A stretch of 64,000 bases of DNA from Escherichia coli (GTDB taxonomy: Bacteria; Pseudomonadota; Gammaproteobacteria; Enterobacterales; Enterobacteriaceae). The notes below the pieces were generated by a model. The model made no database searches and had not been told where the DNA came from. It worked only from the letters and a program-made list of their open reading frames with translations. Position numbers and translations under genes: made by a program. Shown here piece after piece: positions 2,395 through 60,014 of this stretch (position 1 is its first letter; every line of letters begins with the position of its first letter). Location of the stretch: NCBI GenBank assembly GCA_032372955.1, contig GCA_032372955.1_4725.1; one strand, given 5' to 3'.

Positions 2395-3300
2395 ATGGAG
2401 TACAGTGAAATCCTAGGGTTAGAATCGAAAGAAATCCTCTTTCGGCTGATTCGAAAGCATAGCGATTTCGATGCTCGAGGCGTAACGCTGGATAAACTGG
2501 TTATCGGTGAGGCTTCTGAAAGCACAGGGTACAAGCGTAACAGCAAGTTAACCGTGCATCCCCAGCCGGGTTCAGGGCTGGTGAACTCTGTCGACATCTA
2601 TTATAACCGCATCGATCTTGGTAAACTGGGTACTTGGCCTGGCGGACAGCACCACTGGCCCGTCGAGATCGAAACCTTAGATGCGCTAACCAAGGTCTCT
2701 GAGATCCTACCTGTCTTAGCATCGACGTACGGTATCCTTCTCAACAAAACCGAGATTGTCGACGCAGATCTGGATAAGTCCAAGTCACCGATACAGGTTG
2801 TGATAACACCTAAACCCGGTAACCAAGTATGGGTTGGTCAGTTACTTGTCGAGTTAACTTCAGGACATAATGACCTCAACAACCTCGTTCGCAACAATAT
2901 GTTGGCTGGGTTGAATTATATCATCGATCGAGATAGCAGTAAACTCCCGGGCGCTATTGTTTCGTACAACTGGTTCGTATCTGCTGGTGTTCTGGCGTCA
3001 CTTACCGATGGTTATACGTTAACCTCAGGTGATACGCAATCGGAGGCACTAATCGCAGAAATGAACATGCTGCAATTGGGTCTCTCTGAAGAGATCGACG
3101 GCCTTATGGTCAACGATCGCTGGGTATTGTCAGCAATACCTGGACCACTCAACTTGCAGAATGCGAGAGTAATAGCCGATCCAGAGCAATTCAAAACACT
3201 ACCGTTTGGCGTGCGTACGGATGTTAGTAAAGCCGTCGTACTTCAACTTAGTGTGATGAATACGCTCATCGATGGTTATCTAACGCTATATGTAGCATAA
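2395..3300 (+). CDS. hypothetical protein, distant member of the same paralog family (ASTYGI motif)
   Basis: 301-aa ORF; RBS-like GGGGTG upstream; motif LPVLASTYGILL resembles LIPLIQSTYGIVI in 627..1478. Confidence 0.5.
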   Translation: MEYSEILGLESKEILFRLIRKHSDFDARGVTLDKLVIGEASESTGYKRNSKLTVHPQPGSGLVNSVDIYYNRIDLGKLGTWPGGQHHWPVEIETLDALTKVSEILPVLASTYGILLNKTEIVDADLDKSKSPIQVVITPKPGNQVWVGQLLVELTSGHNDLNNLVRNNMLAGLNYIIDRDSSKLPGAIVSYNWFVSAGVLASLTDGYTLTSGDTQSEALIAEMNMLQLGLSEEIDGLMVNDRWVLSAIPGPLNLQNARVIADPEQFKTLPFGVRTDVSKAVVLQLSVMNTLIDGYLTLYVA

Positions 3301-3309
3301 CAGCATATC

Positions 3310-3341
3310 CCCTCCTCCTTCCCTGTTGGGTTGGAGGAGGG
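3310..3341. terminator. GC-rich hairpin CCCTCCTCC/GGAGGAGGG between convergent genes, followed by T-rich tract; likely bidirectional terminator
   Basis: perfect 9-bp inverted repeat 3310-3318 / 3333-3341. Confidence 0.5.
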
Positions 3342-3351
3342 TTATGTTTGG

Positions 3352-4632
3352 TTATTTGTTTTTCTGACTGGAATCGATCAATTCGAGCTTGTGTACTGTC
3401 TGCAACGTCGCATGCGTTTCCAACCAGACCTGGTGAAGATAAGGCGTATCGTTAAGCCGCTTAACGCGCGTATGTTTGTACAACGTATTTTCAAACAACA
3501 TGTTCTTACGAAGTCCCCAGCGCGAGTGAAGTACCCATAACGGTTTTTCATAGGTCTGCACGTAAGCTGGTAACTCGCCGAGATCGGCTCGAATCAGTCC
3601 TTCCGGTTTCTTACCTAAGAAATACTGTCCTGGTACACCACTTCGTGGTAAAGGTTCTTGTGTAACCTGAATCGATGTTGCTTTGATGTACACCCAGAAA
3701 CTGCAAGGATGCGTCACCCACGCTTTCAATGCTTTATCAGACAATAAACGATTGGCAACAATGTCGGACTGTGGGTCTTCTTCGTTCAACAGAATACCAA
3801 GAGATGTTAGATCAAGGTATTTGCGGGAACGGAAGTATCTTTCATAGAGAAACATGTTAATGCAGTTTATTTTCGCTGTCGTGTCGCTAACGATCGTGTA
3901 ACAATCGTCAAGAAGATGTAAATATCCCCCGAACACCAGCGCGACGGTTTCATCTTCGGCGACCTTGCGCGGTAGCCGTAAATACATCTCGTCCTTATAC
4001 GGCAAGAGCTTCGTGGAATCAGCGATCATCTCTTCTGTGATAGCATGGATTTCCAAACTCCCGATACGGCTAAAATCAATCATACCGATATCGTTTTCTT
4101 GGCCACGCTGTGCTGTCTTGAACCCACCTTGGATATAGACACCAACGTCTTTACCGTAAACGTGAGGATGGACATAACCGCCTACGGTGAACAAGCAGTG
4201 TTTGCCGATATTTTCGTAATTCGTATTCGCTTTCGTCAACAGGATATCAGTGCGTTCCGACTCGGGAATCGCGTTGCTTGGATGATAGCCACTATTACCG
4301 ACTTTAGGGAGAAAGCCTACCGTAATAGCGTCATGACAATAAAGCTTGTGGGTTTTAATCGACAGCTCGCCAGGCTGTCCACGAAGGTTAGTATGCGCAT
4401 CCGATTTCGCTTTCAACCACGCATTGAGTGTATCACTGCTGTTTTGAAGCTCGGATTGAAATGTGTACAGATCAATAACTTGTTGCTGGTCAGCATAGCT
4501 TTCATGGACCTGGATCTTGAGTTTTTGATACGTTGAGAACAACGTACTCAGGACACTTTCACCCGCCTCAAGCGCTGTCCAGGCCGTGCCAGAACCCACG
4601 GGTAATCCGTAAGTTTTTACCAATGTATACAT
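3352..4632 (-). CDS. hypothetical protein
   Basis: 426-aa ORF on minus strand; GGAG-type RBS context upstream of start. Confidence 0.5.
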   Translation of the reverse strand: MYTLVKTYGLPVGSGTAWTALEAGESVLSTLFSTYQKLKIQVHESYADQQQVIDLYTFQSELQNSSDTLNAWLKAKSDAHTNLRGQPGELSIKTHKLYCHDAITVGFLPKVGNSGYHPSNAIPESERTDILLTKANTNYENIGKHCLFTVGGYVHPHVYGKDVGVYIQGGFKTAQRGQENDIGMIDFSRIGSLEIHAITEEMIADSTKLLPYKDEMYLRLPRKVAEDETVALVFGGYLHLLDDCYTIVSDTTAKINCINMFLYERYFRSRKYLDLTSLGILLNEEDPQSDIVANRLLSDKALKAWVTHPCSFWVYIKATSIQVTQEPLPRSGVPGQYFLGKKPEGLIRADLGELPAYVQTYEKPLWVLHSRWGLRKNMLFENTLYKHTRVKRLNDTPYLHQVWLETHATLQTVHKLELIDSSQKNK

Positions 4633-4736: not shown

Positions 4737-6890
4737 ATGACAGATGAAATTAAACGCCTTCCGTATAACCCGCAGGGGAATTTGGATGGCGCATGGGTTC
4801 CAGAAGAACCCGTCACTGTCCGTCCTTCCACGGGGACCGGATTTAACTTTCTCGTTCCTAAATACGCGCCATATTTTCGTAATGGGTTAAAGATCTACAA
4901 CCCTGAAACAAACGCGTATCTGGAAGAAGGCGTTGACTTTTTATGCACTCACCCCTTCCGTGCCATGGCTGCGCTGACCGGCCTGGAATTATACGGTTCC
5001 ATCATGCTGTTGGACACCGCATTCAGTGGACAGTTGCAACTGAACTACTATTCACTGGGGGGTGAGTTTACACTTGATCAACAACAAATTCTTAACGTTT
5101 TAGCCAACAACCTCTACGACCCCCGCGTTACGTTCTGGGAAAAGGTTGCTGACGTTCCTTCCGTATTCCCGCCAATCAACCACCAACATAATGTCGAAAC
5201 CGACACAATGACGTGGGACGATGTGGTGGCGGCAATCGAATCATTGAAAGAACCGCTTGAAGAAGGGTTCAATAAAGCAATGACCGCATTGCTGCAGCAC
5301 GAGAATCGTCGCGATAACCCCCATGGCGTAACCAAGGCTCAAGTTGGATTGGGGAATGTTCAGAACTTCACAACGGCGACCGAGAGCGATCTGGAAACCA
5401 TCGGTGAAAATCTGTACATGACGTTGGCGATGACGCGTAAGATGATCGCTAACCTGAGTGGTGATAGTGCTGCTGCACACATCAGCAACTACAACAACCC
5501 ACACAAGGTAACTAAAGCCCAGGTGGGACTCGGAAACGTTGAGAACTACGGTACAGCCGATAGTAATGCAACCATTACCGGTACGGCCACAAATCTGTAC
5601 ACAACACCAGCGGGTGTACGTGCGGCAATCAAGGCGATCACGGACGGCTTAAGTACGCGCATCGATCATGTCAACGCTGCGTTAACAACCCATACCGGGG
5701 ATAATAACAACCCTCACGCTGTTACGAAAGCACAGGTAGGACTGGGGGACGTACAGAACTACGGTGTGGCGTCTAATGGGGAAGCCGGTGCAGGTGTTGC
5801 TAACAACAAATACATGACGCCCGCAACCACAGCAGCCGCCATCGCAGCGTTAATCACCCCAACCGTAACCGAACATATCGGTAACACCAACAACCCACAT
5901 GGGGTGACCAAAGCCCAAGTCGGTCTGGGAAGCGTGCAGAACTTTGGGGTTGCTACTACCCAAGAAGCTATCGACGGTCAGGCTAACAACAAGTACATGA
6001 CACCAATACTTGTTCGTTACGCGATCGAGCAAATGGCTGGTCAAGGGTTCAGTAGTCACATCGCAAATACCGAGAACCCGCACCAAGTATCTAAAGCACA
6101 GGTAGGGTTGGGGAGTGTTGAAAACTATCCTGTCGCTTCTGATGTGGAAGCACAAACAGGTGTAGCGACCAACCGCTATATGACACCGGCTGCGACAAAA
6201 GCGGCAATCATCGCTTTAGCGGGTGATGGTTTTGCGGCACACGTTGTCGATAAGAGCAACCCGCATGAAGTAACAAAATCTCAAGTTGGGTTAGGGAACG
6301 TACAGGACTTTGCTGTCGCCACCGACACGCAAGCTGCCGACAAGACTAACCAGACGACGTACATGACACCGTACTCGACTTACAAGTCAATTGCGGCGTT
6401 TGCGGCGTTAGCCGATCATACGCACACAGCCGAACAAGTCGGTGCGCTCCCCATCAATGGGGGTAAGTTAACCGGACCAATCGATCTTTCAGCAACGTCT
6501 ATCACGGGTACCGGACTCGGTATCGATGGTGCTAATGGTTCAATCAACGTCAATAAGTTGACCATCAACCAGCTTCTGGAAGCTTACGGTGGCATTGAAT
6601 CCAGTGATACGATTAAAATCCTGAACGACGATGAGACGCCCGCTAACTTCCTTGCCGATGGCGATCTCGAAGGGATCAAATGGGTTAACATCAACAGCCA
6701 AGAACCTGGAGAGAACCAAGACGGCGAGAAGATGCAGAAGATCGGTAAGCTGAGCGATTACCTTAAGAACGATTATTTAACCAGCTTGAAGACGAACACA
6801 GCGTTCCGTGATGTCTTCCAAGCACTGCTTAGGGAATTCCTTGCTAACTTCAACGCGGTTATCAAAGCAACCGACTTCGAGACGTTATAA
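4737..6890 (+). CDS. tail fibre protein with six tandem NPHxVTKAQVGLGNVxN[YF] repeat units
   Basis: 717-aa ORF; six copies of the repeat; N-terminal region and repeat shared with 10577..12625. Confidence 0.7.
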   Translation: MTDEIKRLPYNPQGNLDGAWVPEEPVTVRPSTGTGFNFLVPKYAPYFRNGLKIYNPETNAYLEEGVDFLCTHPFRAMAALTGLELYGSIMLLDTAFSGQLQLNYYSLGGEFTLDQQQILNVLANNLYDPRVTFWEKVADVPSVFPPINHQHNVETDTMTWDDVVAAIESLKEPLEEGFNKAMTALLQHENRRDNPHGVTKAQVGLGNVQNFTTATESDLETIGENLYMTLAMTRKMIANLSGDSAAAHISNYNNPHKVTKAQVGLGNVENYGTADSNATITGTATNLYTTPAGVRAAIKAITDGLSTRIDHVNAALTTHTGDNNNPHAVTKAQVGLGDVQNYGVASNGEAGAGVANNKYMTPATTAAAIAALITPTVTEHIGNTNNPHGVTKAQVGLGSVQNFGVATTQEAIDGQANNKYMTPILVRYAIEQMAGQGFSSHIANTENPHQVSKAQVGLGSVENYPVASDVEAQTGVATNRYMTPAATKAAIIALAGDGFAAHVVDKSNPHEVTKSQVGLGNVQDFAVATDTQAADKTNQTTYMTPYSTYKSIAAFAALADHTHTAEQVGALPINGGKLTGPIDLSATSITGTGLGIDGANGSINVNKLTINQLLEAYGGIESSDTIKILNDDETPANFLADGDLEGIKWVNINSQEPGENQDGEKMQKIGKLSDYLKNDYLTSLKTNTAFRDVFQALLREFLANFNAVIKATDFETL

Positions 6891-46142: not shown

Positions 46143-49100
46143 CTACTGTGCGTACCTTGTCCGTGTTGGAGAGATTCCTTGCGGACGATTAGGTAGTGAC
46201 ATCGTCTGTTGTTGAGAAGGACCTGCAGAACCCTTACCGATAGAAGAACCCTTAACGGCTTGGATTAATTCCGAAATAAGTTCATTCGTTCTACCGGTGT
46301 TCTTTTCGATGTTCTGCTGTGTGGTCAGCTGCTGTCGGAGAATTTCACCTGCGCTACCGTAGAAGTTCTCACTTGCAACCGATGTTTGTGTCGCAGACTG
46401 CGCAACCTGTGCAGGCGTATTCGGAACCGATATCCCTCGATTTGCACCCGGGTTTGACGGCAAATCGCTAGGTGCTGGAGTTGATGTCGGTTGTCCTGCC
46501 GCGGCTTTTGCTGTTTCGAAACTTCCGGGCGTTGGTGATGCTTCTCCAGGTGCTGGGGCCGTCCCGGCAGCCGCAGACGGTTTAGATTCAGGGATAGTAG
46601 AAGATACCGGGGCTTGCGGATCGTTGCTTACAGCAGGTGTTCCGTTTGCCTCTTGTGCTGCTTCGTTCTTCACCTGTTCGGCGGTGGTCGGTCCTTCAGC
46701 TTGATCGTCTGATGTTGATCCCGATAACTCGTCCATCATTTTCTTCAGGGTGCCATTCTTAGCCGCCTGAATCCAATAAGCAGAACGTTGTTCAACATCA
46801 CGTAATCCGTTAAAACCACCGTTAACCAGATAACGAACTTGGCGCACATCACCCCGTTTTGCGGGATCGCGTAACACGTTACCTCGGTTGAGCCACCATG
46901 CAACACTACCTTCCGCCGCACCTTCCGGCGTTTCCAGGTATGTCGGATCGCTGACAAGATCCTTGTTCAAGGTCTTGGACAGACGAGCGTAGTTAGCTTT
47001 ACCGGTAACCTGAATGAAGCCACGTCCTAAATACTTCGCCCCGTCTCCTTTCTGTGTGTTTCCTAGATCTTTACGATTACCATACACACGTTCGAATACC
47101 GCTTCCGGCCCCATGCTGATCGTCTGTGCGGCATCCTGCACATCACGGAATTTGTAAGGGAAGACCTGTTTAAGACGCTCTGGTGTCTTATAGTTCCCCT
47201 CACGTACGTGAGTGTAGTTCCCCGATTCATGTTCGATGTTCGCAAGGAACATCGCCATTTCCATTGGATCGGTAATGCCGCGTTTTACAGCGGATTTAAC
47301 AAGCGCACGACGTCCAGCTTCAGGACCTGGTCCCATTGCAGGTTTCTGTAAGCCCATGTTAGGCAATCCAGTAAGATCGCCGGTTGACCCTAATCCCGCA
47401 TTGGAAGTAGCCGAAGCAGTAAAGCTGCTTGCACCTACCCTATTCCCATTGGGGTTGTAATTCGCTTCGGCGTTACTCATCCCACCGGTAATGCGTGATT
47501 TCTTCTGCCAGACACCGTCTTTCTTCTCGTACCCAGCCTGCTTCATCATCAGCTCTTGGATCTTCGATAATTTATCGGTATCCTCTTGCGATGCTTCCGC
47601 GTTCTTCTCACGAACCTTCTCTTTATCCGCATATTCTTTTAACAGATCGAGCTGGCTCTTTGTTGAACTGCTGGTGGTGTTAGCTTCAGTACCGGAGAAA
47701 CCACAACTATTCCAGGACCATACAGGCTGCAGTGTACCTTTCTCATCACGGTATTGCGTTGCGACAAGTGCTTCACCGATTTCCCAACGTTGGCTGTCTT
47801 TCAGGTTCTGTACCACGTCGGACAGAAGTCCTTGACCGCCCATGTCGCTAACGTGTTGGTAATAGGTTAAAAAGACGGGCAGGAAACGGTTATTCATCCA
47901 AGCAAACCAGATATCCTGATCCCGCTTGCTGTTAACGTCCCGTCCGAACTTCGTCGCGAATTTCTTGTAGAGCGCGACAAGATCGCCACCGTATTTAACA
48001 CCTTTACCTTCAGCGACAACGCCAGGTTCTACAGCGTCTTCGAGTTCCATCAGCACTTTTATCTGACTTAGCAACGGAACCTTAATACCGTACGCACGAA
48101 CACGGAGACTGGTGAGTTCATCGATGTATCCACCGGCAACCCATTTTCTACCACGACGGTCTACGCTTTCAATAACCGCGGTCGCGTCAAGCTTCTGTCG
48201 TCCTTTAGCGCCAGCGCTGTTGTAACGTTTATCGTTAAAACGTAACGACGCTTTCTGACCGCGTAATGCGTTAGGCGCAACGGATTTACGTTGTGTGTCA
48301 GACATCCGTGACCAATCAGCAATAGCCTCATCATGAGAGTATTGCTTAATCTGATTCTGGTACTCTTTCTTGATGGCTTCGAGTTGTTTCAGCATCAAGG
48401 TTTTGACGTCTTGACCAGCAATATAACGCGTCGCACCAGAAGAACCCAACGGGTTAGCTTCGACGTAATACGGACCATCAGGACTATCGGAAGGCCAGAT
48501 AAACGCTTCCGACCATTTCACTTTGTTCTCACCGTTCGGATATTTATCCATTTCCATGTATTTCTTCTCGTCCGGCATATGCTCTTTCCAGAGTTTGTAC
48601 GCACGAGCGAAAACAGGAATAAAACGATGCAGATACCAGCGTTTCCATTCGTTCATTCGGTCGGAATCTTCCAGGGACAATTCCCAGATTTCGAGAATCT
48701 TTTCAGAATCCGCTTTCGGATCGAATCCGATGGTATCCCCGGTCATGACCACATGGTCGGTGAGGTATGTTTCTGTCGCAAGCAGCTTCTTATTGAAGTC
48801 TTTATCGTCCCCTTTTGCACCGTATGCAATAAGACGGAGCTTCTGCATCGGGTCAGGCTTCTCAGCGAAATGCTGATAGATCTTCCATCCAGCATAAGCA
48901 GCCAACGCACCACCTGCAATAGCAAGCCCAACAGGTGAGATAAGGAATGCACCTAATCCCGATAACCCACCAACAGCGTTCAATGCGGCCCCGCCCGCCA
49001 TTAACGCACCACGTCCTAACCATCCTGCTGCACTTAGTCCTCCCTTGACTAGCGCGCCGGTTCCACTAATGAGACCCTTGCCTAACAACCCGGTTAACGA

Positions 49101-52100
49101 TGCACCGCCGCTTAACACCGCCCCAAGACCGCCTAGAATTTTTCCAAGCGGACTCGCCATGAGTCGTTTACCTAATGCGGTATCGCCGAGCATATCGAAA
49201 AGGCTTCCGAGTAATCCCCGTTTCTTCTCCTTTTCTTCTCCTTTATTGGAATCTTTGCCGGTGTCGTCCTTACCGTTTTCCTTGGCTGCACGCTTACGTT
49301 TCAGGTCTTCCAACGATCCTTCTCGAACACCATCGCCATTCCAATCGCGGTAATCCTTATCGCCACCCGGCATACGCTGGTCAAGAAGCTGGTAAATAGC
49401 ATCGAGGCGATCTACCATGCTCGACGTTGTTCCCACCAGTAATGCGTCAGGTGATTGGAAATTTAATCCCATCCGTCGTAGACCGTTAACGGTTTTACCT
49501 GGAAGGGCTTTAAGGATGTCCTTTGTCTTACGTAGCAGCGTTAACGGTAACGTAAAAGCTTTTACGCCGAAGTTGATGAGCTTTTCTTTTAAACGACGAA
49601 TCGCTTTACCGTATTTATCGACAAGTCCTTTCTGCATGTCGGCAAGCGTAAGTACGACGTTACCTTGTGCATCAACAACATCACCATCGATGTCTTCAAG
49701 ATTTTTGATGACTTGTCCATCAGAGCGACGGAAATACCCGCCAGCTGCTAACACCATGGACAACAGACGAGGCGTTGATTCTCCCTTGACGTAAACGTCG
49801 GGTGTTTTGTCAAGCTGTTTGTAGATCTCGACCGCACCGCGTTTTAACATCCGTGGCAGACTTAATACCGTCGTGATTCCATTAAGACCTTCACGTGCCC
49901 ACGCCTTAAGTCCTGAATTCTCAAAGGCACGACCAGCGCGAGTGACCAACCCTTTCTCGATATCCTCGTTGCTGATTACGATGTTTCCATCCGCATCAAC
50001 GAGTGGGCCTTTGATATCCTTCATCCGTTTTACGGCTTTTCCTGTCGCTTCGTCGAAGTATAACCCCTGACGAAGTTTGGCAGCCAGTATGCGTGGTTGG
50101 GATTCCCCTTTAACGTAAATGTCAAACGGAACCTGATCAACCTTGGATAATGCGCCGAACACAAAACGGTTGAAATTGATAATGCGTCGGCCGGAATTTA
50201 CCAAACTACCCAACGTGCGTTCTGCACCCCAGCGTGCGCCTTTAACACCCAAACGTGCGGTATTTTTAATTCCTTTCCAGAGGAGATTACGGCCACCTTT
50301 AAAGAGGTTGCGTGCACCGAGTTTTTGTTTGGCACGATCGATAAATGAAATGGGTGCTGTACCTTCAGGTACATCTTCACCATCCAGTGAAACGTTATTA
50401 GACCAGTCTTTCTCAGAAATGGCTTTCAGCAACGCAAGCATTTCAGTACGTTGTTCGGATGCTTCAGATAACGCTTCGAGATAAAGCTCTTGCCACGCTC
50501 GATTCTGTTCTTCAAGCGATGTGGTGATAACACCCGTGTCGTTCCACCATTTATCATAGCCGATGTTTTCATCAACGGTTACTGTTCCAACAGCCTTGCG
50601 ATCGATGTTCGGCAGACCCGCATTTTGGACGTCATCAACTGATGGTTTTGCGTCACGATAACCTAGCGCCAGCGCTCTTGTTTCCTGAGCGGTTAATCGC
50701 GTATTAACATCACTACGTTCAGCGTACTCCGGTCGGTCGATGTATCGATCGATTTCAGAGAAATACCGATCGTGATTAACCGAGTAGCTTCCGTCGCTAT
50801 TTCTCGTTACGATACCGATACGTTCCAGATATTGGACGTCACCAGTACGTTTCAGTAGGTTAAGGTTACGCTGGATATCCGGTTGTAACGATTTCAGATT
50901 TCCGTAGCGAAGATCCGCTCGGTTACGTTCCGTGTAATATTGCCCGCGGTTTCCAATGACCTGATGACGTTCGCCCTTATCGTTGACATCATCACGAATA
51001 CCGTAACGGTCACGAAAGTACGTGGAAAGTTCCTTAATAGCGTCGCGGTCAATACTACGATCGAAGTTGCTTTCATCCGTAAAACGAGCCGGGTCGAATG
51101 CGATGTTTGCGTCGCTATCTCGTGCCAGCTGCTTAGCCAGTGCCTTCCTGGCTTTTTCCGATAATTGTTTATCGGGATCGACGACCGAGATAACCTCATT
51201 GAAACGGCTGGCGTAATAACCAAATGAACGTTTGTTAAACAGGGTGTCGTTGACGCTTTGTTCGCGCGTGCGCTGAGCCACGAATTGCCCGCTGATGCCG
51301 TCATAGACCTCGTAGTCGGGATCGCTGTTTCCCGTGCGGATGCCTTCACTGCTTTTCAGAATGCGAGCAAGAAAACCAGGAATAACTTCATTGATGCTGC
51401 GGTAAGTTAAACCGTCGAAAGACGTCTGCTCCGCCAATGTTTCAGCGGTGTCGTTCATCACACGGAAGTTACGTCCGCTGTCCATGTTGAACGCCCAACG
51501 CCCTGCGCCGCGTAACAATTGCTTGTAAAACGGATCGTTAAGATTGAATTCGTTTTTACGAATATCTTCCTGGAGCAGTTTACCGAGATTACGCGTCGTG
51601 TAAGCGGCAGCCTCACCACCTTGATCCACGGCTTTTAACGCGCTAGCGAATTTAGCGTTGGGGTGACGTTTTGCTAAATCGCGTAACGCCATCCTGCCTT
51701 TATTAGCCATCCATGGTGCGACAGTTGAGCCAATGAACTGACCCAACATCTTTCCTTGCATTTCCTTAATATCGCCTTCTGACCCCATCCCATCCATCAT
51801 GGACATCGAGTCACGTGCTTCGTTTAAACCGTATAACGCATCGTTTGCGCCAGACACGACGCCTTTTAAAGCACCTAATGCGTTGGTGGCAAGGTTCTTC
51901 TTAACATCGGCAAAGAAACGGTTCTCGAAAGAACTCATCGCATCTAACGCGTTACCAAAGAAACGTTGGTACGCGCTACGGCGGAATTCTTCCGACATTT
52001 TTGCTTTAGCTGCATCAGGTAAAGCCGTATTCTTCTGGATGTTTTGTAATAAACCGATATAGACTTCGGCTAACTTTTTATGCTGATCAAAACTTGCACG

Positions 52101-52808
52101 TTGAATCGCTAAGGAACGATATTTCAGTTCCAGGCTTTTACGCATGTAGCGCGCGGCGAATTCATTGTTGAAACCAACCATCTTGGCGACGCCTTCTTGC
52201 ATCGCACTCATTTGTTTGTTGGTTACAGCGTACCGTTTGTCAGCGATATCGTCACGGATACTCTCTTTCGCTTGCTGCTCAGCAAACTGATCCGCGTTTT
52301 GGTTTGCTGATTCGCCTAATGCCTCGGCAACCTTGCGGGCGATCTCATCGTCCCCCGCGCTCGCCATGCGTTGACGAAGGGTTTCTTCAGCATGTTTACG
52401 TTCGTCTTCTTCCTTGGCTTCTCGCTCCCACTGCTCGAGAATTTTCTTCGAGAAATCGGGCATGCTCGCGCGGTATTTCTTGGTCAGTTGTGCAGCTAAC
52501 CGTTTTGAGCTTTGGACCTTAGGAAGAACGTCACGAACGGCTTCATTGTATAGTTCCTTCGTGGATCCGACGGCGGAATCGATAAGATCCATACCGTCGC
52601 TGTAGCCCTTAGGCAATGCGTTTCTGGCGATCTCCTTCATTCTTTCGTAGGAAGTAAGATCTTCAGCAGCACCTTTAACCGCGCCTATCGCAAAGCGTGT
52701 TATCGGTTTACGATCGTCTTTGGGTTCGTTAAAATCGAGATCCAGGGAGAAGTCATCATCCCAGTTATCCCAATTATCATCACCCTCAACACGGGTTTTA
52801 TCTACCAT
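46143..52808 (-). CDS. giant virion-type protein (2221 aa) with glycine-rich hydrophobic segment and embedded lysozyme/muramidase-like domain
   Basis: GGAGG RBS before ATG 52808; EHESGNY and GRGFIQVTG lysozyme-like motifs encoded around 46800..47290; Gly-rich TM-like tract; Pro/Ala/Ser/Thr-rich C-terminus. Confidence 0.7.
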   Translation of the reverse strand: MVDKTRVEGDDNWDNWDDDFSLDLDFNEPKDDRKPITRFAIGAVKGAAEDLTSYERMKEIARNALPKGYSDGMDLIDSAVGSTKELYNEAVRDVLPKVQSSKRLAAQLTKKYRASMPDFSKKILEQWEREAKEEDERKHAEETLRQRMASAGDDEIARKVAEALGESANQNADQFAEQQAKESIRDDIADKRYAVTNKQMSAMQEGVAKMVGFNNEFAARYMRKSLELKYRSLAIQRASFDQHKKLAEVYIGLLQNIQKNTALPDAAKAKMSEEFRRSAYQRFFGNALDAMSSFENRFFADVKKNLATNALGALKGVVSGANDALYGLNEARDSMSMMDGMGSEGDIKEMQGKMLGQFIGSTVAPWMANKGRMALRDLAKRHPNAKFASALKAVDQGGEAAAYTTRNLGKLLQEDIRKNEFNLNDPFYKQLLRGAGRWAFNMDSGRNFRVMNDTAETLAEQTSFDGLTYRSINEVIPGFLARILKSSEGIRTGNSDPDYEVYDGISGQFVAQRTREQSVNDTLFNKRSFGYYASRFNEVISVVDPDKQLSEKARKALAKQLARDSDANIAFDPARFTDESNFDRSIDRDAIKELSTYFRDRYGIRDDVNDKGERHQVIGNRGQYYTERNRADLRYGNLKSLQPDIQRNLNLLKRTGDVQYLERIGIVTRNSDGSYSVNHDRYFSEIDRYIDRPEYAERSDVNTRLTAQETRALALGYRDAKPSVDDVQNAGLPNIDRKAVGTVTVDENIGYDKWWNDTGVITTSLEEQNRAWQELYLEALSEASEQRTEMLALLKAISEKDWSNNVSLDGEDVPEGTAPISFIDRAKQKLGARNLFKGGRNLLWKGIKNTARLGVKGARWGAERTLGSLVNSGRRIINFNRFVFGALSKVDQVPFDIYVKGESQPRILAAKLRQGLYFDEATGKAVKRMKDIKGPLVDADGNIVISNEDIEKGLVTRAGRAFENSGLKAWAREGLNGITTVLSLPRMLKRGAVEIYKQLDKTPDVYVKGESTPRLLSMVLAAGGYFRRSDGQVIKNLEDIDGDVVDAQGNVVLTLADMQKGLVDKYGKAIRRLKEKLINFGVKAFTLPLTLLRKTKDILKALPGKTVNGLRRMGLNFQSPDALLVGTTSSMVDRLDAIYQLLDQRMPGGDKDYRDWNGDGVREGSLEDLKRKRAAKENGKDDTGKDSNKGEEKEKKRGLLGSLFDMLGDTALGKRLMASPLGKILGGLGAVLSGGASLTGLLGKGLISGTGALVKGGLSAAGWLGRGALMAGGAALNAVGGLSGLGAFLISPVGLAIAGGALAAYAGWKIYQHFAEKPDPMQKLRLIAYGAKGDDKDFNKKLLATETYLTDHVVMTGDTIGFDPKADSEKILEIWELSLEDSDRMNEWKRWYLHRFIPVFARAYKLWKEHMPDEKKYMEMDKYPNGENKVKWSEAFIWPSDSPDGPYYVEANPLGSSGATRYIAGQDVKTLMLKQLEAIKKEYQNQIKQYSHDEAIADWSRMSDTQRKSVAPNALRGQKASLRFNDKRYNSAGAKGRQKLDATAVIESVDRRGRKWVAGGYIDELTSLRVRAYGIKVPLLSQIKVLMELEDAVEPGVVAEGKGVKYGGDLVALYKKFATKFGRDVNSKRDQDIWFAWMNNRFLPVFLTYYQHVSDMGGQGLLSDVVQNLKDSQRWEIGEALVATQYRDEKGTLQPVWSWNSCGFSGTEANTTSSSTKSQLDLLKEYADKEKVREKNAEASQEDTDKLSKIQELMMKQAGYEKKDGVWQKKSRITGGMSNAEANYNPNGNRVGASSFTASATSNAGLGSTGDLTGLPNMGLQKPAMGPGPEAGRRALVKSAVKRGITDPMEMAMFLANIEHESGNYTHVREGNYKTPERLKQVFPYKFRDVQDAAQTISMGPEAVFERVYGNRKDLGNTQKGDGAKYLGRGFIQVTGKANYARLSKTLNKDLVSDPTYLETPEGAAEGSVAWWLNRGNVLRDPAKRGDVRQVRYLVNGGFNGLRDVEQRSAYWIQAAKNGTLKKMMDELSGSTSDDQAEGPTTAEQVKNEAAQEANGTPAVSNDPQAPVSSTIPESKPSAAAGTAPAPGEASPTPGSFETAKAAAGQPTSTPAPSDLPSNPGANRGISVPNTPAQVAQSATQTSVASENFYGSAGEILRQQLTTQQNIEKNTGRTNELISELIQAVKGSSIGKGSAGPSQQQTMSLPNRPQGISPTRTRYAQ

Positions 52809-53053
52809 GTATACCTCCAGTTCGATACGTTCCCATGTTACGTTGGAACGTGATGCACGAAGTTTACCTTCGGCATTGATAATGTTGAAGCGTAACTTCA
52901 CACATCGCCCGCTTGATTTTATCAAGCAGGTACGTAACCTAATAACTTCCTCGCCTCAAGCAAGGAAGCGATGGGTGACGCCATCACCCATTACGTCTCT
53001 CGTGTGTTCAGATGATACCGCCGCAGCCGGTGGTGGTAAAGAGGAGTGTCTCC

Positions 53054-54520
53054 ATGGCTAAAGTCAGAGAGCCGTTTAATATTAGCATTTTGCGCCTCGA
53101 TAAACAGCAGTTACGTTTTCTCCCCAAGATCACGAGCATGAGCATCCGTGACCCAAGCACCGGTAATTTCCACGATGATGGTTTCTATTCTTACACCATC
53201 TTTGGTAGTGCGGGTAGTGAAGATCGAGACCGTCGATTTGCGGTGATCGAATGCAAGGTTGAAATCCTACACCCCGTCATTTACGACCGCCTCATTCGAC
53301 TAAAACACCTCTATGGCGATATCATGTCGGGGAAGGCGTACGCTCGGTGGGATCCTGAACAACGCGACTTCGTTGCGTCTGATGCGTTAACAGGACAAAC
53401 AGGATACGGGTTCTTTGCACAACACGTCGCGGATATCAAGTTCGTTTCAACGGGTTCAGCTCAACGAGAGCTACGAATTAAAGTTGTCGAAGAGAACATG
53501 TTCAAAGCGATGACCCGTCACTTACTGGTATTGCCTGCGGGCTTACGCGAAATAGAAGTAAAAGAAGGCGGGTATGAAAGCGAGCAAGAAATCACGGAGT
53601 TGTATCGTCGTTTCCTTGCAATTTCTAACACCGTCCCTGATGGATTAAAAGATTATTCTGATCCCGTTTACGACGGTCAACGTTGGAGCTTACAGAGAAC
53701 ATTTAACGATATCTACGCTTTGTTGTTGGATATGTTCCAAGGTAAGAAAGGGATCTTCCAAGGTAAGTTCGGTTCACGTCGCGTTTGGAACTCAACCCGT
53801 AACGTTATTTCGGCAATTAACCCCACAACAGAGGTACTAGGGTCGCCCAACCAGCCTTCCTGTACCGCAGTTCAGTTAGGGTTATACCAGATGAGCAAAG
53901 CCGCCCTACCCGTGACGCAACATGCGTTACGTACGGGGATTTTGCAGGAAATATTTGTCCGTGATGTTACAGAAGTTGAACTTATCGATACCGAAACGAT
54001 GGAACGTGAACGTGTCACGCTTGATCCAGACACCATCGATGACTTTACAACATGGGACGGAATAGAACGTTTATTGAACACCTTAAGCGATCCTGGTGTA
54101 CGTAACGAACCCATCATGGTTAATGGGCGTTATCTTTGTCTCGTCTATGTGAACAATGATTCGTTTCGGTTATTCCGTGGTATGAGTGAATTACCCCCGG
54201 AGATGCTGAATAAGCCTGGTGCGGATGTTCACCCCATCACGTACACCGAGCTTATCTATATTGCCGGATATAAGTACTGGAATAACCTGGCTGCGATGGT
54301 AACACGTTATCCGGTATCGGGTATGCAATCCGTTATCCCGTTAACCTGTTACGCGCGTACAACCGTTGCAGCAAAACCGAAAACCGAACTGGATAGTAAC
54401 TGGGAACCAATAACGGATGAACGATTTATCGCATGGGAATACCCCGACTGGTTACCTAATGCCTCGTTCGTAGAAACTACTATTGTTCCTGCGCCATACC
54501 TCGCCGGTTTAGGCGGTGAT
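53054..54520 (+). CDS. RNA polymerase beta-prime-like subunit, N-terminal module, exon 1 (predicted 3' boundary)
   Basis: AAGAGGAG RBS; beta-prime-like segments ELYRRFL and GKKGIFQGKFGSRRVWNSTRNVI; boundary placed after U54520 by homology and frame. Confidence 0.6.
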
Positions 54521-55002
54521 AAGTCCTTGAAAAATAAAGACTTTTTTCAATGGAAGTTGTCCGGTATTCCCGAAAGGGAGTGCTTGAAAAACCTACGAAT
54601 TGCTGGGAACCCCTAAAGCTCAACGACCCATGAGGTGCCGAAAGGCAGAAACAACAGTTGAGATGCACTACCTCCCACGGAGGCTTAGGCTGAAAGAAAA
54701 GCCGCGTAAGCGGTGCTAAGGTGCGCGATAATGGGCAATCAGCAGCCTGGTTGTTGCGTAGTAATACGGCATTCTTGAAAACAAGAATGTGAAACAACGC
54801 AGGTTCAACGACTAAGGGATTTACCACCCTGTAGAGGACAAGCGTCTTCGAAGTGTAGGTTACCGTAACAGGTGTTGCTGAAGTATTCTTCAGCGAAGCT
54901 GACGGTTTGATATAGTCTCCTCTTGCATGAAAGTGCAAGCAGCCTGTGATGTACGTATCCATGCAGGCGGTCTCAGCGTAGCGACCTGAGGCGAAGACAA
55001 GG
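54521..55002 (+). ncRNA. group I intron (ORF-less), intron 1, boundaries predicted
   Basis: Q-like AATCAGCAGC 54737-54746, R GTTCAACGACTAAGGG 54793-54808, S GATATAGTCT 54909-54918, P8-like hairpin CTTGCA/TGCAAG; flanked by two halves of one conserved protein motif. Confidence 0.7.
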
Positions 55003-55182
55003 TTCGACGGTGATACGGTCTCGGTTAACGTTCTTTATTCCATGGAAGCCATTGACGAAATTACCAACTCGCACAAGAAGCGAGCTTTCTGGGTAAGTGG
55101 TAAAAATAAATTCAACATCGATATTGGTTACGATACGGTTGCGTTTCTATTACGCAACTTAACGGGACCTCGTGGAGCCTAA
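55003..55182 (+). CDS. RNA polymerase beta-prime-like subunit, exon 2 (begins FDGDTVSVNV...)
   Basis: frame encodes FDGDTVSVNVLYSMEAIDEI...IGYDTVAFLLRNLT, matching bacterial [20 protein letters not shown]...SQDVVLGLYYMT; stop at 55180. Confidence 0.6.
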   Translation, partial: FDGDTVSVNVLYSMEAIDEITNSHKKRAFWVSGKNKFNIDIGYDTVAFLLRNLTGPRGA

Positions 55183-55185
55183 CCC

Positions 55186-58100
55186 ATGGCAAAACTTAAA
55201 TACCTTGATTACTACCGACAGTTTGGTGTCAGACGCTACCAAGAGCTACTATCACCAAGATTACGTTTAGTGCAGCTACTGCAGCTGCCGCGTTATGCTG
55301 TCTATCATTACACCGCAACGGATCCTTCATTGATAGGTCCTCCAGAAAACGAATACATGCTGAGCAAAGAAAGTGCTCAACTATGGATTTCGTTTGCTGA
55401 TGATCTCGCAACCAAACAGGGTGCACCCCGACGTGATCAACGATTCCAACTCCCACGAGCGAAATTGGATTATCGTGCATCACATCGTCGTTTTCGTTTG
55501 GTTACCGATCTAAGCGCGGTGGAGAAAAACATCAACGCTCAGATCGTTGCTAACTACGCGCATCTTAACCACATGTACATTTATCGTCCAACGCTCACCC
55601 GTTGGTATGATGAATGGTTCAACGTACGTAAAACAATTTGGTCGAAAGCCAACGAAATCGCACAGCAAAGCGATCGTCAACACTTTTTGTTGTTCCGTAT
55701 ACCGTCAAAATTGCCGAAGATTTCGTTGATGCGTACCACGCAACAGGCACCGACCCGTAACAACCTCATGAATTTCGCCACGCCGGAGGAGCTGTCGTTC
55801 TTTGACTTCTTCCGCTGGTTGGGCGTCGATCGTGAGAACAGCACGATGGCTTCGTTAGACAGGGCCATGCTGGATAAGCTTAACGTCGTATTTACAGACG
55901 GTGTGTACTTCTTTACGCTGAATCTCGGCCTGCTGGAGGAATGGCGTACCGGACTTGTGAAGGAAGGGGAAGAACTCGATAAAACGACGCTTGAAACCTT
56001 CCAACGACGTTGGATGATGGCGGTAACACGTCTGTGGTCGCAGAGTGCGAATGAAGAAGAACAGAAACAAGAAGAGGAACAGGTTCTTCGTCAAGAGCGA
56101 GATATTCTTGCAGCCAGCCCGGATGCGGAGTACGATGATCGTGACGTCGTGCTTCCTAACGGTGAGGATCTGGCTACCGTTCTCGATCCCGATGAGTTAG
56201 AAGCGGAGTTGGTCGGTGGGTCGGATGAAGACGATGATGCTGATGCATGGAACGCCATCGTAGAACGCTCGTTCGAAGATGTCCGTGAAGTACCTGGGGT
56301 AGAAGTACAACCGGATTTCCAACCTGATGAAGATCAGGACATTACCGACGATCTCTTCGAAGTCGTTACCGACGATACCGAAGAAGAAAAGGTTGATGTC
56401 TTTGACGCGGCAACGTTACCAAAAACGCATGGCGAATATATTCAGTCGCTATCGGATGCGGTGTTGGTACGCGCGAGTGATCTGGCGGATGCGGGTCAGT
56501 TAAGCGGTGTCCAGTATAAAGCAGCGATGCGTAACGCCGACGCCATTCACGAAATCGAAGCACCCGACGGTTCTGGATTAACACTTGCTGAGTATGTCGA
56601 AGTTAAACCAAAAGCCGCAAAATTAGCTCCCGCAAAGGTTATGCCGGAAGCGGATGTTATCGTCGACAAGAGCTTATGTAAATCGACGCTCGCGGTGTGG
56701 GATAAACATTACGTCGAACACGTAATGCAAAAGGACATCGCAGCTGCCGTTGTTGCGGTACAGCAGGCGGGTTACCCTGTTACGGGATATAAAGTTGAAG
56801 ATGTTGTTGACGTGATGGGGGACTATCAAGTCATCACGATTAAACTGGCCCCTGTAGGCGGTGTCCCGACCACGTTCCCGGTGATGTTGCCGAAGGTTCG
56901 TAAGGACGGCATTTATGTCGTTAACGGTATCAAGTACCGGATGCGTAAACAACGCGTCGATAAACCTATTAGAAAGGTATCGTCATCTGAAGTCGCATTG
57001 AGTACCGCCTACGGTAAGGTGTTTGTTAAACGTTCAGAGCGCGTCGTTAATAACGCCGGTCGTTGGTTAACACGCCAACTTACGGCGATGTATTACGATA
57101 AGTCCTCGCCCTTAACAACGTTAAAACGCGGTAACGTCTTTGATCCGGCTGTCAAAGTTCCGTATTACTTCGCTGTGCTTGCACGCAACTATACCCAAAT
57201 CCAATTTGCTGATTGGGATATACGTCTCGATATAAAAACATTGCCGGAGTTCATCGGGGAAGATCGGTTCAACGAACAGTTAGCCGAAGGACTCCTGACG
57301 TTCGCGCGTAACACGTTGGGTGAATTCTTAGCAATCGATAAACGCAATCAGCTCTATATCTGTCAGTCGGGACAAACACCAACACCTGTAGGGACGTTCC
57401 CTGATTTCTTCGGCATTAATGCGGCTAAGATGCCGATCGAAGCCGCCGATCTTGAATTCATGGGTGTACGTATTCCGGTCGGTGTTGTTCTAAGTTATCT
57501 GGGTGGGCTTACCCCGTTATTAGAACATCTTAAAGCGAACTATCGTACGGTACCTCGCGGCTCTCGTATGGGGTTAGCACCCGATGAATTCGCAGTGAGC
57601 TTTGACGACGAAAGTCTGATCTTCAGTAAAGACGATCGCATGACGACGTTGTTGCTGGGTGGGTTTAACGAATACCGTAACTACATTGGTTACGCTCGCG
57701 GTGCTTTCGACAATCGAGATATCTATTTTAACGTTGTTGATGGTGCTGGACTTAAGGTTCGCCATTTGCGCGAACTTGAACTCATGGAGCGTCTTTTCAT
57801 CGATCCGGTAAGCCGTACGTTGTTGCAGAACATGGGAGAACCTACCGATTTCGCCATGTTGTTACTGCGTGCTGTTGAACTGCTTCTGGATGATTGGGCA
57901 CCTAACACGAACGATGTGAACTACCAACGTTTTAAAACGTACGATAAGTTCGCTGAATTGGTGTATAAGGACCTGGTTGGCGCTATTCGTCAGAATGAGA
58001 ACAGCAGTCAAGGGAACCGCCAGAAAATCTCAATCAGTCCGGTAAGCGTCTGGAACCAAATTCTCGACGATAGCGCTTCCATCGTGATCGATGAAACCAA

Positions 58101-58335
58101 CCCGATGCTGGATATCAAGCAGGGTGAAGAAGCAACGATGACCGGTATCGGGGGTCGTTCAAAGACATCGCTTCGACGCGCACGTGATCGCGAATACGAC
58201 AAGTCGGACATTGGTGTTGTATCCGAAGGTACGAAGGATAGTGGGGACGTAGGTATTTCTGCTTACCTCGCACCTAACGCAAACATTGTGTCTGTATACG
58301 GTGAAACGAAACCTTACGACGAGAAAACGGATGGT
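55186..58335 (+). CDS. RNA polymerase beta-like subunit, N-terminal module, exon 1 (3' boundary approximate)
   Basis: ATG 3 nt after the beta-prime stop; C-terminal part DETNPM...TGIGGRS...RRARDRE...SEGTKDSGDVGISAYLAPNANIVSVYGETKPYDEKTDG parallels E. coli beta DQNNPL...LGPGGLTRERAGFEVRDVH...[36 protein letters not shown]. Confidence 0.55.
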
Positions 58336-58874
58336 AGCTCGTCAATAATGAGTACATCAGCACTTGCAGTACCTGCTGCTGATAGAGATGATTAACGCTT
58401 TTAATAGCAGGGTCCGTCTATGTGGCGACATGTAGATGAGATTCACTGAATTGCGAAGACATCCGTCGCTGTTATCGACCAAAACGGATTCTGAAAAGAA
58501 AGACGGTACGGTATAAAAACAGATAATAGCTTAAGGACAATCCGCAGCCAAGTACCTAAGGATCGCTGTGAAGCGTTCTAAGGTAAAGGTTCAACGACTA
58601 AGGGATTCATCCCCCTGTACCCCTCGAGTGAGGCATTCTCCTTGGATAAGAGAATGGTGCTGGATGCGCTGGGAAGAAGTGAACTCTCGTTGAGGTGCTG
58701 AAGAAGCACCGTTTGAAACGAGATGTGATATAGTCTGCTCTTGCGTGAGAGCGCAAGCGGGAGGTGGTGCGCCTATCATCGCCTCCGGGATAAGACTAAC
58801 GACCTTATCTGAACAATCTAATCTCAGTCTTATTTCGGTAACGGTATGTTAATACTGAATAAGAACTAAATTCG
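58336..58874 (+). ncRNA. group I intron (ORF-less), intron 2, boundaries approximate
   Basis: P-like AATTGCGAAG 58449-58458, Q AATCCGCAGC 58539-58548, R GTTCAACGACTAAGGG 58589-58604, S GATATAGTCT 58727-58736; homologous to intron 1 with a compensatory change in the P8-like stem. Confidence 0.7.
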
Positions 58875-60014
58875 CCCAAGAGATTGGTATTTATAGGTAT
58901 CCAACACAACCGCATGATTGCTGCTGAAGGTTACGATGTACAGCCGTGGCGTACGGGTGGTGAGACTGTTATCGCGCATCGTGTTGGTAAGCTCTTCGCA
59001 GCAGCTGCCCAAGGCGATGGTGTTGTGAAGAAGGTCACTAAAACTGCGCTGACGATACAGTACGACGACCCAGAGTTAGGGGAAGAGGTTTTCCAGCTCG
59101 GTACGATAATCGGGAAAGGACCAGGTAAGTATTATCCTCACGATCTCATTACCGATTATAAAGTCGGGGATCGCGTTAAGGATCAGGATGTGGTGGTTTT
59201 CCACCGCCTTTATTTTAAACGCGATTGGTGGAACCCAGGTCAGGTTGTTTGGCGCGCAGGTGTTCTGTCTCTTGTCGGTATTCTGGATATTCCAGAGACC
59301 CACGAGGACAGCTCGTATATCTTCGACAATCTTGCTGATCGTCTCGTAACACCATCGATTAAGAGTCGTACGCTTATCGTTGACGCTCATCTCAACATTC
59401 GTGGTCTCGTGAAAATCGGTGATCATGTTGAACCGCGAACGATTCTTGCAACACTGGAAGAACCGATTGCAACCGATCTGAGTGATGAGAGTCAGGAAGC
59501 CGTTGAAGCATTACGTCGTATGAGTCAGTATAACCCACGTGCTGATGTTCATGGTGAAGTTGTACAGATCGATGTACTGTACCGCGCTCAGATTGAAGAC
59601 ATGAGTGAAACCATGGCAGCGCTCGTCGGTGAGGCAGATAAAGCACGAGCTAAACGCGTCAAGGAACTGAAACTCAACGAAGCAACAACGGGGCGTATCA
59701 ATAACAGTAACGTGAGAATAGACGGTAATCCGTTAGGCGAGAACCAGATCGCCATCCGTATTTTCATGCGTTACGACCTTGGTGCGGGGATGGGTGATAA
59801 AGGTACCTTCGCAGCTCAAGCGAAATCCGTTGTCTCTTCCGTGGGTCATGGTGTGAACAAAACCGAAGACGGGCACACCCTTGATGCTATCTTCAGTGGC
59901 ACCAGTATCGCTAACCGTATCATCGGTTCACCGGAAGTGGTTGGGACTGTGAATCTTGGTCTCCTCTACGCAACGGAACGAGCTGTTGATATTTACTTTA
60001 ACGACGCTAAATAA
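58875..60014 (+). CDS. RNA polymerase beta-like subunit, exon 2 (5' boundary approximate)
   Basis: open frame extends upstream of the track start (TTG at 58884) to 58863; IGIQHNRMIAAEGYDV parallels E. coli beta IHYLSAIEEGNYV directly after the TDG motif. Confidence 0.55.
   Translation, partial: PKRLVFIGIQHNRMIAAEGYDVQPWRTGGETVIAHRVGKLFAAAAQGDGVVKKVTKTALTIQYDDPELGEEVFQLGTIIGKGPGKYYPHDLITDYKVGDRVKDQDVVVFHRLYFKRDWWNPGQVVWRAGVLSLVGILDIPETHEDSSYIFDNLADRLVTPSIKSRTLIVDAHLNIRGLVKIGDHVEPRTILATLEEPIATDLSDESQEAVEALRRMSQYNPRADVHGEVVQIDVLYRAQIEDMSETMAALVGEADKARAKRVKELKLNEATTGRINNSNVRIDGNPLGENQIAIRIFMRYDLGAGMGDKGTFAAQAKSVVSSVGHGVNKTEDGHTLDAIFSGTSIANRIIGSPEVVGTVNLGLLYATERAVDIYFNDAK

Follow-up and report, generated by a model that had tools for sequence, protein, structure and literature searches.

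The 64,000-nucleotide (nt) stretch of DNA analysed here (the window; contig GCA_032372955.1_4725.1 of the Escherichia coli assembly GCA_032372955.1) is 94-95% identical to Escherichia phage vB_EcoM_Goslar (hereafter Goslar) and carries two open reading frames (ORFs), 55186..58395 and 58884..60014, that resemble parts of the beta subunit of a virion RNA polymerase (vRNAP). The question raised by this locus is why such a gene should come in two pieces and what occupies the interval between them. An earlier interpretation, made from the nucleotide letters and a list of ORFs (the sequence-only reading), had proposed an ORF-less group I intron at 58336-58874 that splits the beta-like gene. Both ORFs are present in the ORF list as it described them, and the intron is upheld by a covariance model, an intron-less homolog, covariation and the absence of any internal ORF longer than 62 amino acids (aa); its 5' boundary, on the other hand, had to be moved. 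We conclude with high confidence that positions 58393-58874 are a group I intron, predicted to be self-splicing, that has a td-like (IA-type) layout, is devoid of an endonuclease gene and interrupts vRNAP beta in a Goslar-like chimallivirus of E. coli. Group I introns are already known at this codon of vRNAP beta genes, both with an endonuclease (PhiPA3) and without one (201phi2-1). What is new here is a member from a Goslarvirus-like E. coli phage with a periphery of its own, in which the P5 extension is large, P7.2 is enlarged and one 3' hairpin is unique.

Host gene and predicted splice junction

Against PHROG 3148 (RNA polymerase beta, 1424 positions), the first ORF covers positions 2-1050 and the second 1055-1420, and both are therefore consecutive pieces of one protein. 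Exon 1 is collinear with Goslar gp207 and shows 46% identity to PHIKZ178 over the 232 aa around the junction. In Goslar, gp207 is one uninterrupted coding sequence (CDS) of 4347 nt that reads ...STSALAVPAVDRDD-GKRLVFVGIQHNRM across the site, with no intron there. The window is 482 nt longer, its exon 1 reading ...STSALAVPAADRDD before a stop and its downstream frame, open from 58863 as had been noted (the preceding stop lies at 58860-62), reading ...PKRLVFIGIQHNRM. Excision of 58393-58874 yields a CDS of 4347 nt and 1448 aa, equal in length to Goslar gp207, with a spliced protein that reads ...AADRDD/PKRLVFIGIQ (here and below, a slash within a protein or between two coordinates marks the junction). 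The intron-less phiKZ gp178 reads EHDDPKRINF at the equivalent place, so that the proline encoded at the junction is itself the natural residue.

Four requirements constrained the junction: exon 1 must end in U, the intron must end in G, the frame must be correct, and the protein must have the length of that of Goslar. The predicted 58392/58875 is the sole junction compatible with all four. Within the open part of the exon-2 frame, no G other than G58874 yields a junction that is both in frame and of the right length. In the window and in three other Goslar-like genomes (L005, L008 and L012) the intron ends in CG directly before CC, and exon 1 ends in GAU GAU immediately before the insertion in these three, in a more distant relative (L004) and in phages HPP-Temi, PhiPA3 and 201phi2-1. 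The sequence-only reading had offered 58335 as an example of a 5' splice site, which is 57 nt too far upstream of the correct 58392/58393, and had described the codons after ...EKTDG as 20 unrelated ones. Goslar (ISSVMSTSALAVPAVDRDD), phiKZ gp178 and homologs further away all conserve these 19 codons (SSSIMSTSALAVPAADRDD), which end in two aspartates aligned with D674/D675 of E. coli RpoB. Between its options for the 3' site, 58874/58875 stands and 58881 falls, as the latter would remove the PK of the conserved DDPKR; alignment of spliced products to homologs, which it had recommended for this choice, picks 58392/58875 through the length of Goslar gp207 and the DDPKR of phiKZ.

Its second anchor in E. 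coli RpoB (IGIQHNRMIAAEGYDV against IHYLSAIEEGNYV) is not borne out by an hhalign comparison of the phage-protein profile with RpoB (probability 93.7%, E = 2e-7), in which DRDD stands opposite E672-H673-D674-D675 and IGIQHNRM opposite GANMQRQA. On this alignment, the intron lies between the codons equivalent to RpoB D675 and A676, in a conserved active-site motif. A Pfam scan of both ORFs gave zero matches, a phmmer search of the PDB with the spliced C-terminal 839 aa gave nothing meaningful, and an exact-protein look-up of the exon-2 ORF gave no record. If splicing is ignored, annotation of this genome and its relatives would yield a beta subunit cut short and, separately, its orphaned C-terminal part, where the true product would be a single protein of 1448 aa.

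The covariance-model search that had been advised as a check was carried out with Rfam on the whole 64 kb, both strands, and two matches, each of them to RF00028, exceeded the gathering score: one at 54535-54939 (64.1 bits) and one at 58391-58757 (52.8 bits against a gathering score of 50, E = 1.5e-10). The latter is full-length (model positions 1-253 of 253) and stays the same with laxer filters, and a more permissive, E-value-threshold Rfam scan revealed no third group I intron in the window. The conserved motifs lie where the sequence-only reading had seen them, namely a P-like AATTGCGAAG at 58449-58458, a Q element AATCCGCAGC at 58539-58548, an R element GTTCAACGACTAAGGG at 58589-58604 and an S element GATATAGTCT at 58727-58736; the R and S elements each occur once more in the window, in another intron described below. 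No homing endonuclease gene (HEG) is found inside 58393-58874, where the longest ORF on either strand has 62 aa. The L1 loop of the window intron has 6 nt, whereas those of L005, L004 and PhiPA3 hold HNH ORFs of ~330-403 aa. Minus-strand ORFs inside the intron were rejected as genes: they are short, and a 19-nt insertion in L012 would break the one of 62 aa.

Conserved structure of the ribozyme

A structure of 83 pairs from P2 to P9.2, including the P3/P7 pseudoknot, P8, P9.1 and P9.2, was drawn by hand, with helices taken from the Rfam alignment, the sequence and its relatives (Table 1). It was evaluated over eight aligned introns: those of the window, L005 and L004 at the same site, those of 201phi2-1 and HPP-Temi, the first intron of the window, the first intron of Goslar and one from a Vibrio phage. 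Over this set, 84.8% of cells are paired and 48 of the 83 pairs show changes on both sides. Sliding the partners by 1-3 columns lowers these values to 36-42% of cells and 12-21 pairs, and the observed values were not attained in any of 500 shuffles. RNAalifold independently gives P2, P4, P5, P6, P6a, P7.1 and P9, with 24 of its 39 pairs compensatory. A foldable group I core, on whose existence the sequence-only reading had made its claim depend, is thus present with compensatory changes.

Table 1. Coordinates of the intron, its exons and structural elements in the window, and of the first intron. bp, base pairs; MFE, minimum free energy.
Feature	Position	Strand	Remarks
Exon 1, vRNAP beta subunit gene	55186..58392	+	phiKZ gp178 / Goslar gp207 homolog; 3' end ...AADRDD, GAU GAU
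Exon-1 co-conversion tract	58206..58392	+	dense, mostly synonymous differences from Goslar; 58270-58392 identical to L005
ORF-less group I intron, 482 nt	58393..58874	+	begins with in-frame UAA; last nucleotide G58874 (omega-G)
P1	58388..58417	+	GAU 58390-92 and U58393 with G58411-G58412-U58413-C58414; wobble U58392.G58412 at the splice site
P1 extension	58397-99 with 58406-08	+	GCU with AGC; closes the 6-nt L1 loop; recovered in MFE fold
P2 hairpin	58418..58435	+	7 bp, GCGA tetraloop; 7/7 pairs compensatory, 98% of cells paired (8 introns)
P3 5' strand	58442..58446	+	UUCAC, partner GUGAA 58679-58683; Rfam alignment
P4, P5 and variable P5 extension	58449..58548	+	P4 58452-57 with 58541-46 (P, Q elements); P5 58462-64 with 58535-37
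P6, P6a, P6b	58547..58590	+	P6b with GUGA tetraloop; Rfam, RNAalifold, pair count
R element	58589..58604	+	P7 5' strand GACUA 58596-58600 with UAGUC 58731-58735 in S element (58727-58736)
P7.1 and enlarged P7.2 domain	58601..58678	+	P7.1 58601-04 with 58613-16; between P7 and P3', as in subgroup IA
P8 and inner stem	58686..58722	+	58686-91 with 58717-22; inner 58694-99 with 58705-10; Rfam, pair count, MFE
P9, P9.1, P9.2	58740..58809	+	P9 with GAGA tetraloop; P9.1 58760-69 with 58777-86; P9.2 58789-94 with 58804-09
Window-specific 3' tail, extra hairpin	58817..58874	+	58829-35 with 58857-63, inner 58843-47 with 58852-56; ends in UUCG at the splice site; hairpin in MFE fold
Exon 2	58875..60014	+	starts PKRLVFIGIQHNRM, runs to stop; first 24 nt a short co-conversion tract
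First intron of the window	54521-55002		exons 53012-54520 and 55003-55182; ORF-less, 482 nt

At the level of single helices, base pairs are exchanged for others between close relatives: U58423-A58430 of P2 becomes C-G in L005, C58566-G58573 of P6b becomes U-A in L005 and L012, and A58762-U58784 of P9.1 becomes U-A in L008. P4 and P5 have 96% of cells paired each, with compensatory changes, P9 and the outer part of P9.1 94% each, and the nearly invariant P7 92.5%, while P7.1 is fully paired (100%), with two pairs altered on both sides and hairpins in the MFE fold within 58601-58678. P3 shows two double-compensatory changes with respect to L004 and has three of its five pairs doubly changed; only 58% of its cells are paired across the set, in part from misalignment. 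The P5 extension includes a GAAA-tetraloop hairpin (58489-58500), and the P8 region tolerates the 19-nt insertion of L012. The unconstrained MFE fold (z = -2.82) reproduces most hairpins and misses P1, P3 and P7, the last two forming the pseudoknot. Hairpins occur where a td-like intron of subgroup IA2 would have P7.1/P7.2 (between P7 and P3') and P9.1/P9.2 (after P9), and the 3' domain is collinear with that of td. The P5 extension and the additional hairpin at the 3' end do not resemble td. Two candidate pairings were discarded. That of the guide GUC with the GAC of P7, given by RNAalifold, is wrong, an artefact of a run without the exon, and an alternative P5 (AUCCGU 58461-66 with ACGGAU 58484-89) is not the one kept by the relatives, which preserve UCC/GGA (58462-64 with 58535-37) instead.

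The guide GUC shows no variation among the eight aligned introns, and the upstream exons that were read end in GAU. The P1 that this pairing of GAU with GUC forms, and for which a search had been suggested, is present in the window in a weak layout, with the exonic GAU and the first intronic U facing GGUC, an internal loop, the 3-bp GCU/AGC extension and the 6-nt loop, to which optional outer pairs extending to 58415-58417 can be added. The pair between intron position +1 and guide position -1 covaries, being U.G in the window, L005, L008, L012 and HPP-Temi, C-G in L004 and the first intron of Goslar, U-A in PhiPA3 and 201phi2-1, and A-U in the first intron of the window. L005 has the same P1 extension, and its L1 holds a 403-aa endonuclease ORF closed by a perfect 10-bp helix (UUGUAAACAG/CUGUUUACAA); this helix lies at 2986-2995 and 4045-4054 of L005 and closes a kilobase-long loop.

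The 3' tail has complementarities elsewhere in and around the intron. Its segment AGTCTTATTTCGG (58826-58838) is complementary to the 5' strand of P9.2 (58785-58797) over 13 nt (85%), and AAUCUAAUCUC (58815-58825) is complementary to 58385-58393, that is, to the last 8 nt of exon 1 and the first of the intron, a pairing preferred over P1 in the MFE fold. These complementarities could be due to chance or could reflect an alternative conformation that affects splicing.

Following the general group I mechanism, the GAU of the 5' exon would pair with the guide GUC (58412-58414), and the wobble U58392.G58412 would mark the 5' splice site. The attack after U58392 would then come from an external guanosine bound by P7, G58874 would replace this guanosine, and the exons would be ligated at 58392/58875. 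The predicted ligated-exon junction is GAGAUGAU/CCCAAGAG (also ...GCTGATAGAGATGAT/CCCAAGAGATTGGTA...), and its product would be the continuous 1448-aa protein ...AADRDD/PKRLVF..., whereas on an unspliced transcript the in-frame UAA at 58393-58395 would be expected to stop ribosomes.

Related introns at the same site

The DD/ site is a recurrent landing place for introns. In the phage collection that was compared, 23 of 290 records had no one place at which at least 80% of the query was covered. In PhiPA3, exon 1 ends ...MNDD (GAU GAU), followed by the HNH endonuclease gp210, a ribozyme core (Rfam 67.8 bits) and an exon 2 that reads MKRVGF. PhiPA3 gp211/209 thus matches the window in the vRNAP beta gene and in the site after two aspartates (MNDD/MKRVGF versus DRDD/PKRLVF), and also in its RF00028 match, its GUC guide and an R element beginning GTTCAACGACTAA. 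The residue given for the PhiPA3 intron by Birkholz et al. (2024, Science; PMC11620839) is the same as in the hhalign placement of DD at RpoB D674/D675. The same work reports that gp210 nicks the intron-less gp178 gene of phiKZ and gives PhiPA3 a competitive advantage (PMC11620839). The insertion site of the window intron coincides with the target, shown recently, of an intron-encoded nickase used by a giant phage against a co-infecting relative. Unlike the 6-nt, ORF-less L1 of the window, the L1 of PhiPA3 carries the HNH nicking endonuclease; moreover, the ribozyme sequences are divergent, the P5, P7.2 and P9 peripheries differ, and the host is Pseudomonas instead of E. coli.

ORF-less introns at the same site are found in 201phi2-1 gp273/274 (Rfam 87.4 bits) and in HPP-Temi, which reads DD/PKRINF. 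The GenBank record of 201phi2-1 has a joined CDS with the note "interrupted by a mobile ...". For this intron, a transcriptome paper of 2024 refers to proteomic evidence obtained before and describes two long RNA reads that are spliced (PMC11512511). Both introns are shorter than that of the window, their interrupted region exceeding that of phiKZ by ~340 nt as opposed to 482 nt, and they are without its large P5 extension, enlarged P7.2 and extra 3' hairpin. Their P1 is a continuous helix of 6-8 bp, whereas that of the window consists of 4 bp, an internal loop and 3 bp.

Four uncultured relatives (L005, L004, L008 and L012) also carry introns here. Closer to the window, L005 comes from a 237.5-kb IMG/VR contig with nearly identical exons and an intron ORF resembling HNH, NUMOD1 and I-TevI DNA-binding domains, whose best phage homolog is PhiPA3 gp210 (36% identity, E = 5e-46). 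This endonuclease ORF (3054-4265) extends ~220 nt into the ribozyme, from P1' to the P5 extension, and nothing in PhiPA3 gp210 corresponds to its final ~60 aa. L004, to which one among the matches listed in a large protein search led, is more distant (66% aa identity) and carries an HNH_3 ORF in L1, while L008 and L012 have ORF-less introns at the same site, like the window. A metagenome scan with the exact string of 5' splice site plus L1 returned 0 matches.

Outside this site, the T4-type td intron (subgroup IA2, carrying I-TevI) shares with the window an S element, P9, P9.1 and P9.2 followed by UCUGAAC. At 31 of 32 nt (97%), positions 58784-58815 (P9.2 plus UCUGAAC) agree with the td intron's 3' end as found in >200 records of T4-like phages; elsewhere the window intron has no nucleotide-level match in these records. 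The shared 32 nt could be a conserved tertiary-contact module or the result of exchange between introns of E. coli phages. The td intron has an in-frame stop right after its 5' splice site, and so does the window intron. It differs in its host gene, thymidylate synthase, and in the place of its I-TevI (GIY-YIG) ORF, which lies further inside the intron, usually in P6, and not in L1; it also ends 5 nt past the shared stretch, whereas the window intron continues for 59 nt.

Mosaic alleles and mobility

The intron shows presence/absence polymorphism among close relatives: it is found in the window, L005, L008 and L012 and not in Goslar, and these alleles sit in genomes otherwise ~95-97% identical. 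The exons flanking the intron diverge from those of Goslar much more than their surroundings. Over the last 100 nt of exon 1 the window and L005 have 0 differences, and both have 30 to Goslar; over the preceding 100 nt they have 16-17 to Goslar, against a background of 0-13 differences per 100 nt in pairwise comparisons of the three over the last 1000 nt of exon 1. Within exon 2, only the first 24 nt show an excess (8-11 differences), with a background of 0-7 per 100 nt for the two flanks. Homing in which a divergent donor is copied by asymmetric co-conversion would be expected to leave just such a footprint, and the co-converted exon flanks show arrival of the intron by homing-type recombination. 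The intron has no endonuclease of its own, and, taken together with the flanks, this indicates either a HEG-less stage of the homing cycle or mobilisation in trans by an HNH nickase like gp210, as in L005. It most likely splices and is not autonomously mobile.

The intron alleles are themselves mosaics. From P7 to P9.2, the window, L005, L008 and L012 share 96-97% identity, with differences that preserve pairing, whereas from the guide through the P5 extension the identity of the window is 96% with L008, 87% with L012 and 67% with L005. Across the final 58 intron nt plus the initial 12 nt of exon 2 (58817-58886), identity of the window to these three falls to 58-67%; they share another, shorter tail, to which that of the window (58817-58874) is 64-67% identical. 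The tail of the window has no exact match in IMG/VR viral contigs, and its divergence suggests a separate recombination patch that may come from another donor.

By analogy with the PhiPA3 work, an intron that splits the target site of the endonuclease should make its allele resistant to that enzyme, and such an intron would spread only when a gp210-type enzyme is provided in trans by a co-infecting relative. Endonucleases of the gp210 type are weapons in phage-phage competition (PMC11620839). A wider scenario, which we put forward tentatively and hold to be possible rather than probable, is that Goslar-like chimalliviruses are in the midst of a homing cycle at the DD/ site, where intron-less, ORF-less and endonuclease-bearing alleles coexist, the ORF-less intron being kept as an immunity allele against gp210-type enzymes and its 3' tail being able to modulate splicing. 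This natural allele series, found in very close relatives of Goslar, itself an E. coli model amenable to genetics, could serve to test the protection of ORF-less introns against endonucleases and to learn how homing proceeds in genomes enclosed by a phage nucleus.

Alternative explanations

Several observations weigh against a functional intron with the structure proposed here. The Rfam score is just 2.8 bits above the gathering score and Rfam's own alignment of P1 is poor. P1 comprises only 3 exon bp plus an internal loop and is absent from the unconstrained MFE fold, which pairs the 5' exon with the 3' tail instead. P10, for which a search had been suggested along with that for P1, amounts to 2 bp (CC/GG) that are not kept in more distant relatives. 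P4 and P6b of the window contain an A.C and a U.U mismatch, respectively, and its specific 3' tail is able to compete with P9.2. Splicing in this genome is, moreover, deduced from its sequence.

A real intron with another junction (58335/58875, 58335/58881 or 58389/58875) is very unlikely, even if U58335 and U58389 are uridines, G58874 and G58880 are guanosines, the frames are compatible and, for 58389, AGAU(G) at 58386-90 is able to pair with (C)GUCU at 58415-19 in an extended P1 with a U58389.G58416 wobble. Use of 58335 would remove the 19 codons conserved in Goslar, phiKZ and distant homologs, with both aspartates, that of 58389 would cost one aspartate and leave a protein shorter than in Goslar and phiKZ, and that of 58881 would forfeit the PK already mentioned; the GAU GAU that closes exon 1 in seven relatives also speaks against these junctions. 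More broadly, junctions at 58335, 58389, 58393, 58863 and 58881 were discarded, as they fail on conservation or frame, create a stop or delete invariant residues. That no splicing occurs, and that beta is naturally split into two polypeptides made from 55186-58395 and 58884-60014, would be in keeping with a stop directly after exon 1, with the TTG start at 58884 and with the fact that phiKZ-like RNA polymerases consist of split beta/beta' fragments. We consider it extremely improbable, given that a full group I core with compensatory evolution lies between the two ORFs, that the split would cut a DD/PKR motif which is continuous in Goslar and phiKZ, that AAGAG ends 1 nt before the TTG and thus leaves no credible ribosome-binding site, and that the orthologous interruption of 201phi2-1 is reported to be spliced (PMC11512511).

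The marginal Rfam score, the mismatch in each of P4 and P6b and the unusual 3' tail, unique to the window, would also fit a decaying, splicing-defective relic, or else a pseudogene in a defective genome or a misassembly. At the place of the P4 mismatch (A58456/C58542), L005 has a G-C pair and L012 an A-U pair. This alternative is hardly credible in view of both exons being intact, with 94-96% identity to Goslar, of the 96-97% identity from P7 to P9.2 and preserved pairing in the alleles of three other Goslar-like genomes, and of the fact that the phiKZ homolog of the host gene (gp178) is essential in phiKZ (PMC11620839). The reading of 58393-58874 as an intron that is excised at 58392/58875 is hence retained.

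The first intron and its surroundings

The other RF00028 match of the window corresponds to its first intron, the counterpart of that in Goslar / phiKZ gp180-gp179, which splits the upstream beta'-like vRNAP gene (phiKZ gp180-like, PHROG 2986) as ...YLAGLGGD/FDGDTVSVNV..., with a spliced product of 562 aa and a predicted 3' splice site at GACAAGG/TTC. We take its site to be the universal Mg-binding motif of NADFDGD type, after its first aspartate. The two introns of the window have in common identical R and S elements, the GUC guide, an upstream exon ending in GAU and a location in an active-site motif, and the second is 62% identical to the Goslar copy of the first over the 3' 225 nt. They differ in that the first resides in the neighbouring beta'-like gene, at GGD/FDGD, and in that Goslar has the first (with the HNH ORF gp206) and not the second. 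In Goslar (NC_048170; 492-2000, 2046-3518, 3511-3939 and ~4000-4185) the L1 of the first intron contains gp206, an HNH/NUMOD1 ORF of 490 aa. The annotated gp205 ends within this intron and its second exon is unannotated, so that the deposited protein is without the FDGD-containing C-terminal 59 aa; the gp205 record looks like an annotation gap.

Vibrio phage vB_pir03 has a group I intron (4806-5185, Rfam 54.7 bits) between two RNA polymerase beta prime fragments, with 79% identity to the window intron over the Q-P6-R region; the family therefore also occupies RNA polymerase genes of jumbo vibriophages. Divergently upstream of the RNA polymerase gene cluster of the window lies, on the minus strand, a 2260-aa ORF (46143-52925) with a lysozyme-like C-terminal region. 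Inside it, a sub-threshold match to the ribosomal S15 leader (51972-52077, minus strand; 28.3 bits against a gathering score of 39.5, E = 0.016) is probably due to chance. The Goslar counterpart of this ORF, gp204, is annotated as a tail fiber protein with a COG3179 lysozyme domain.

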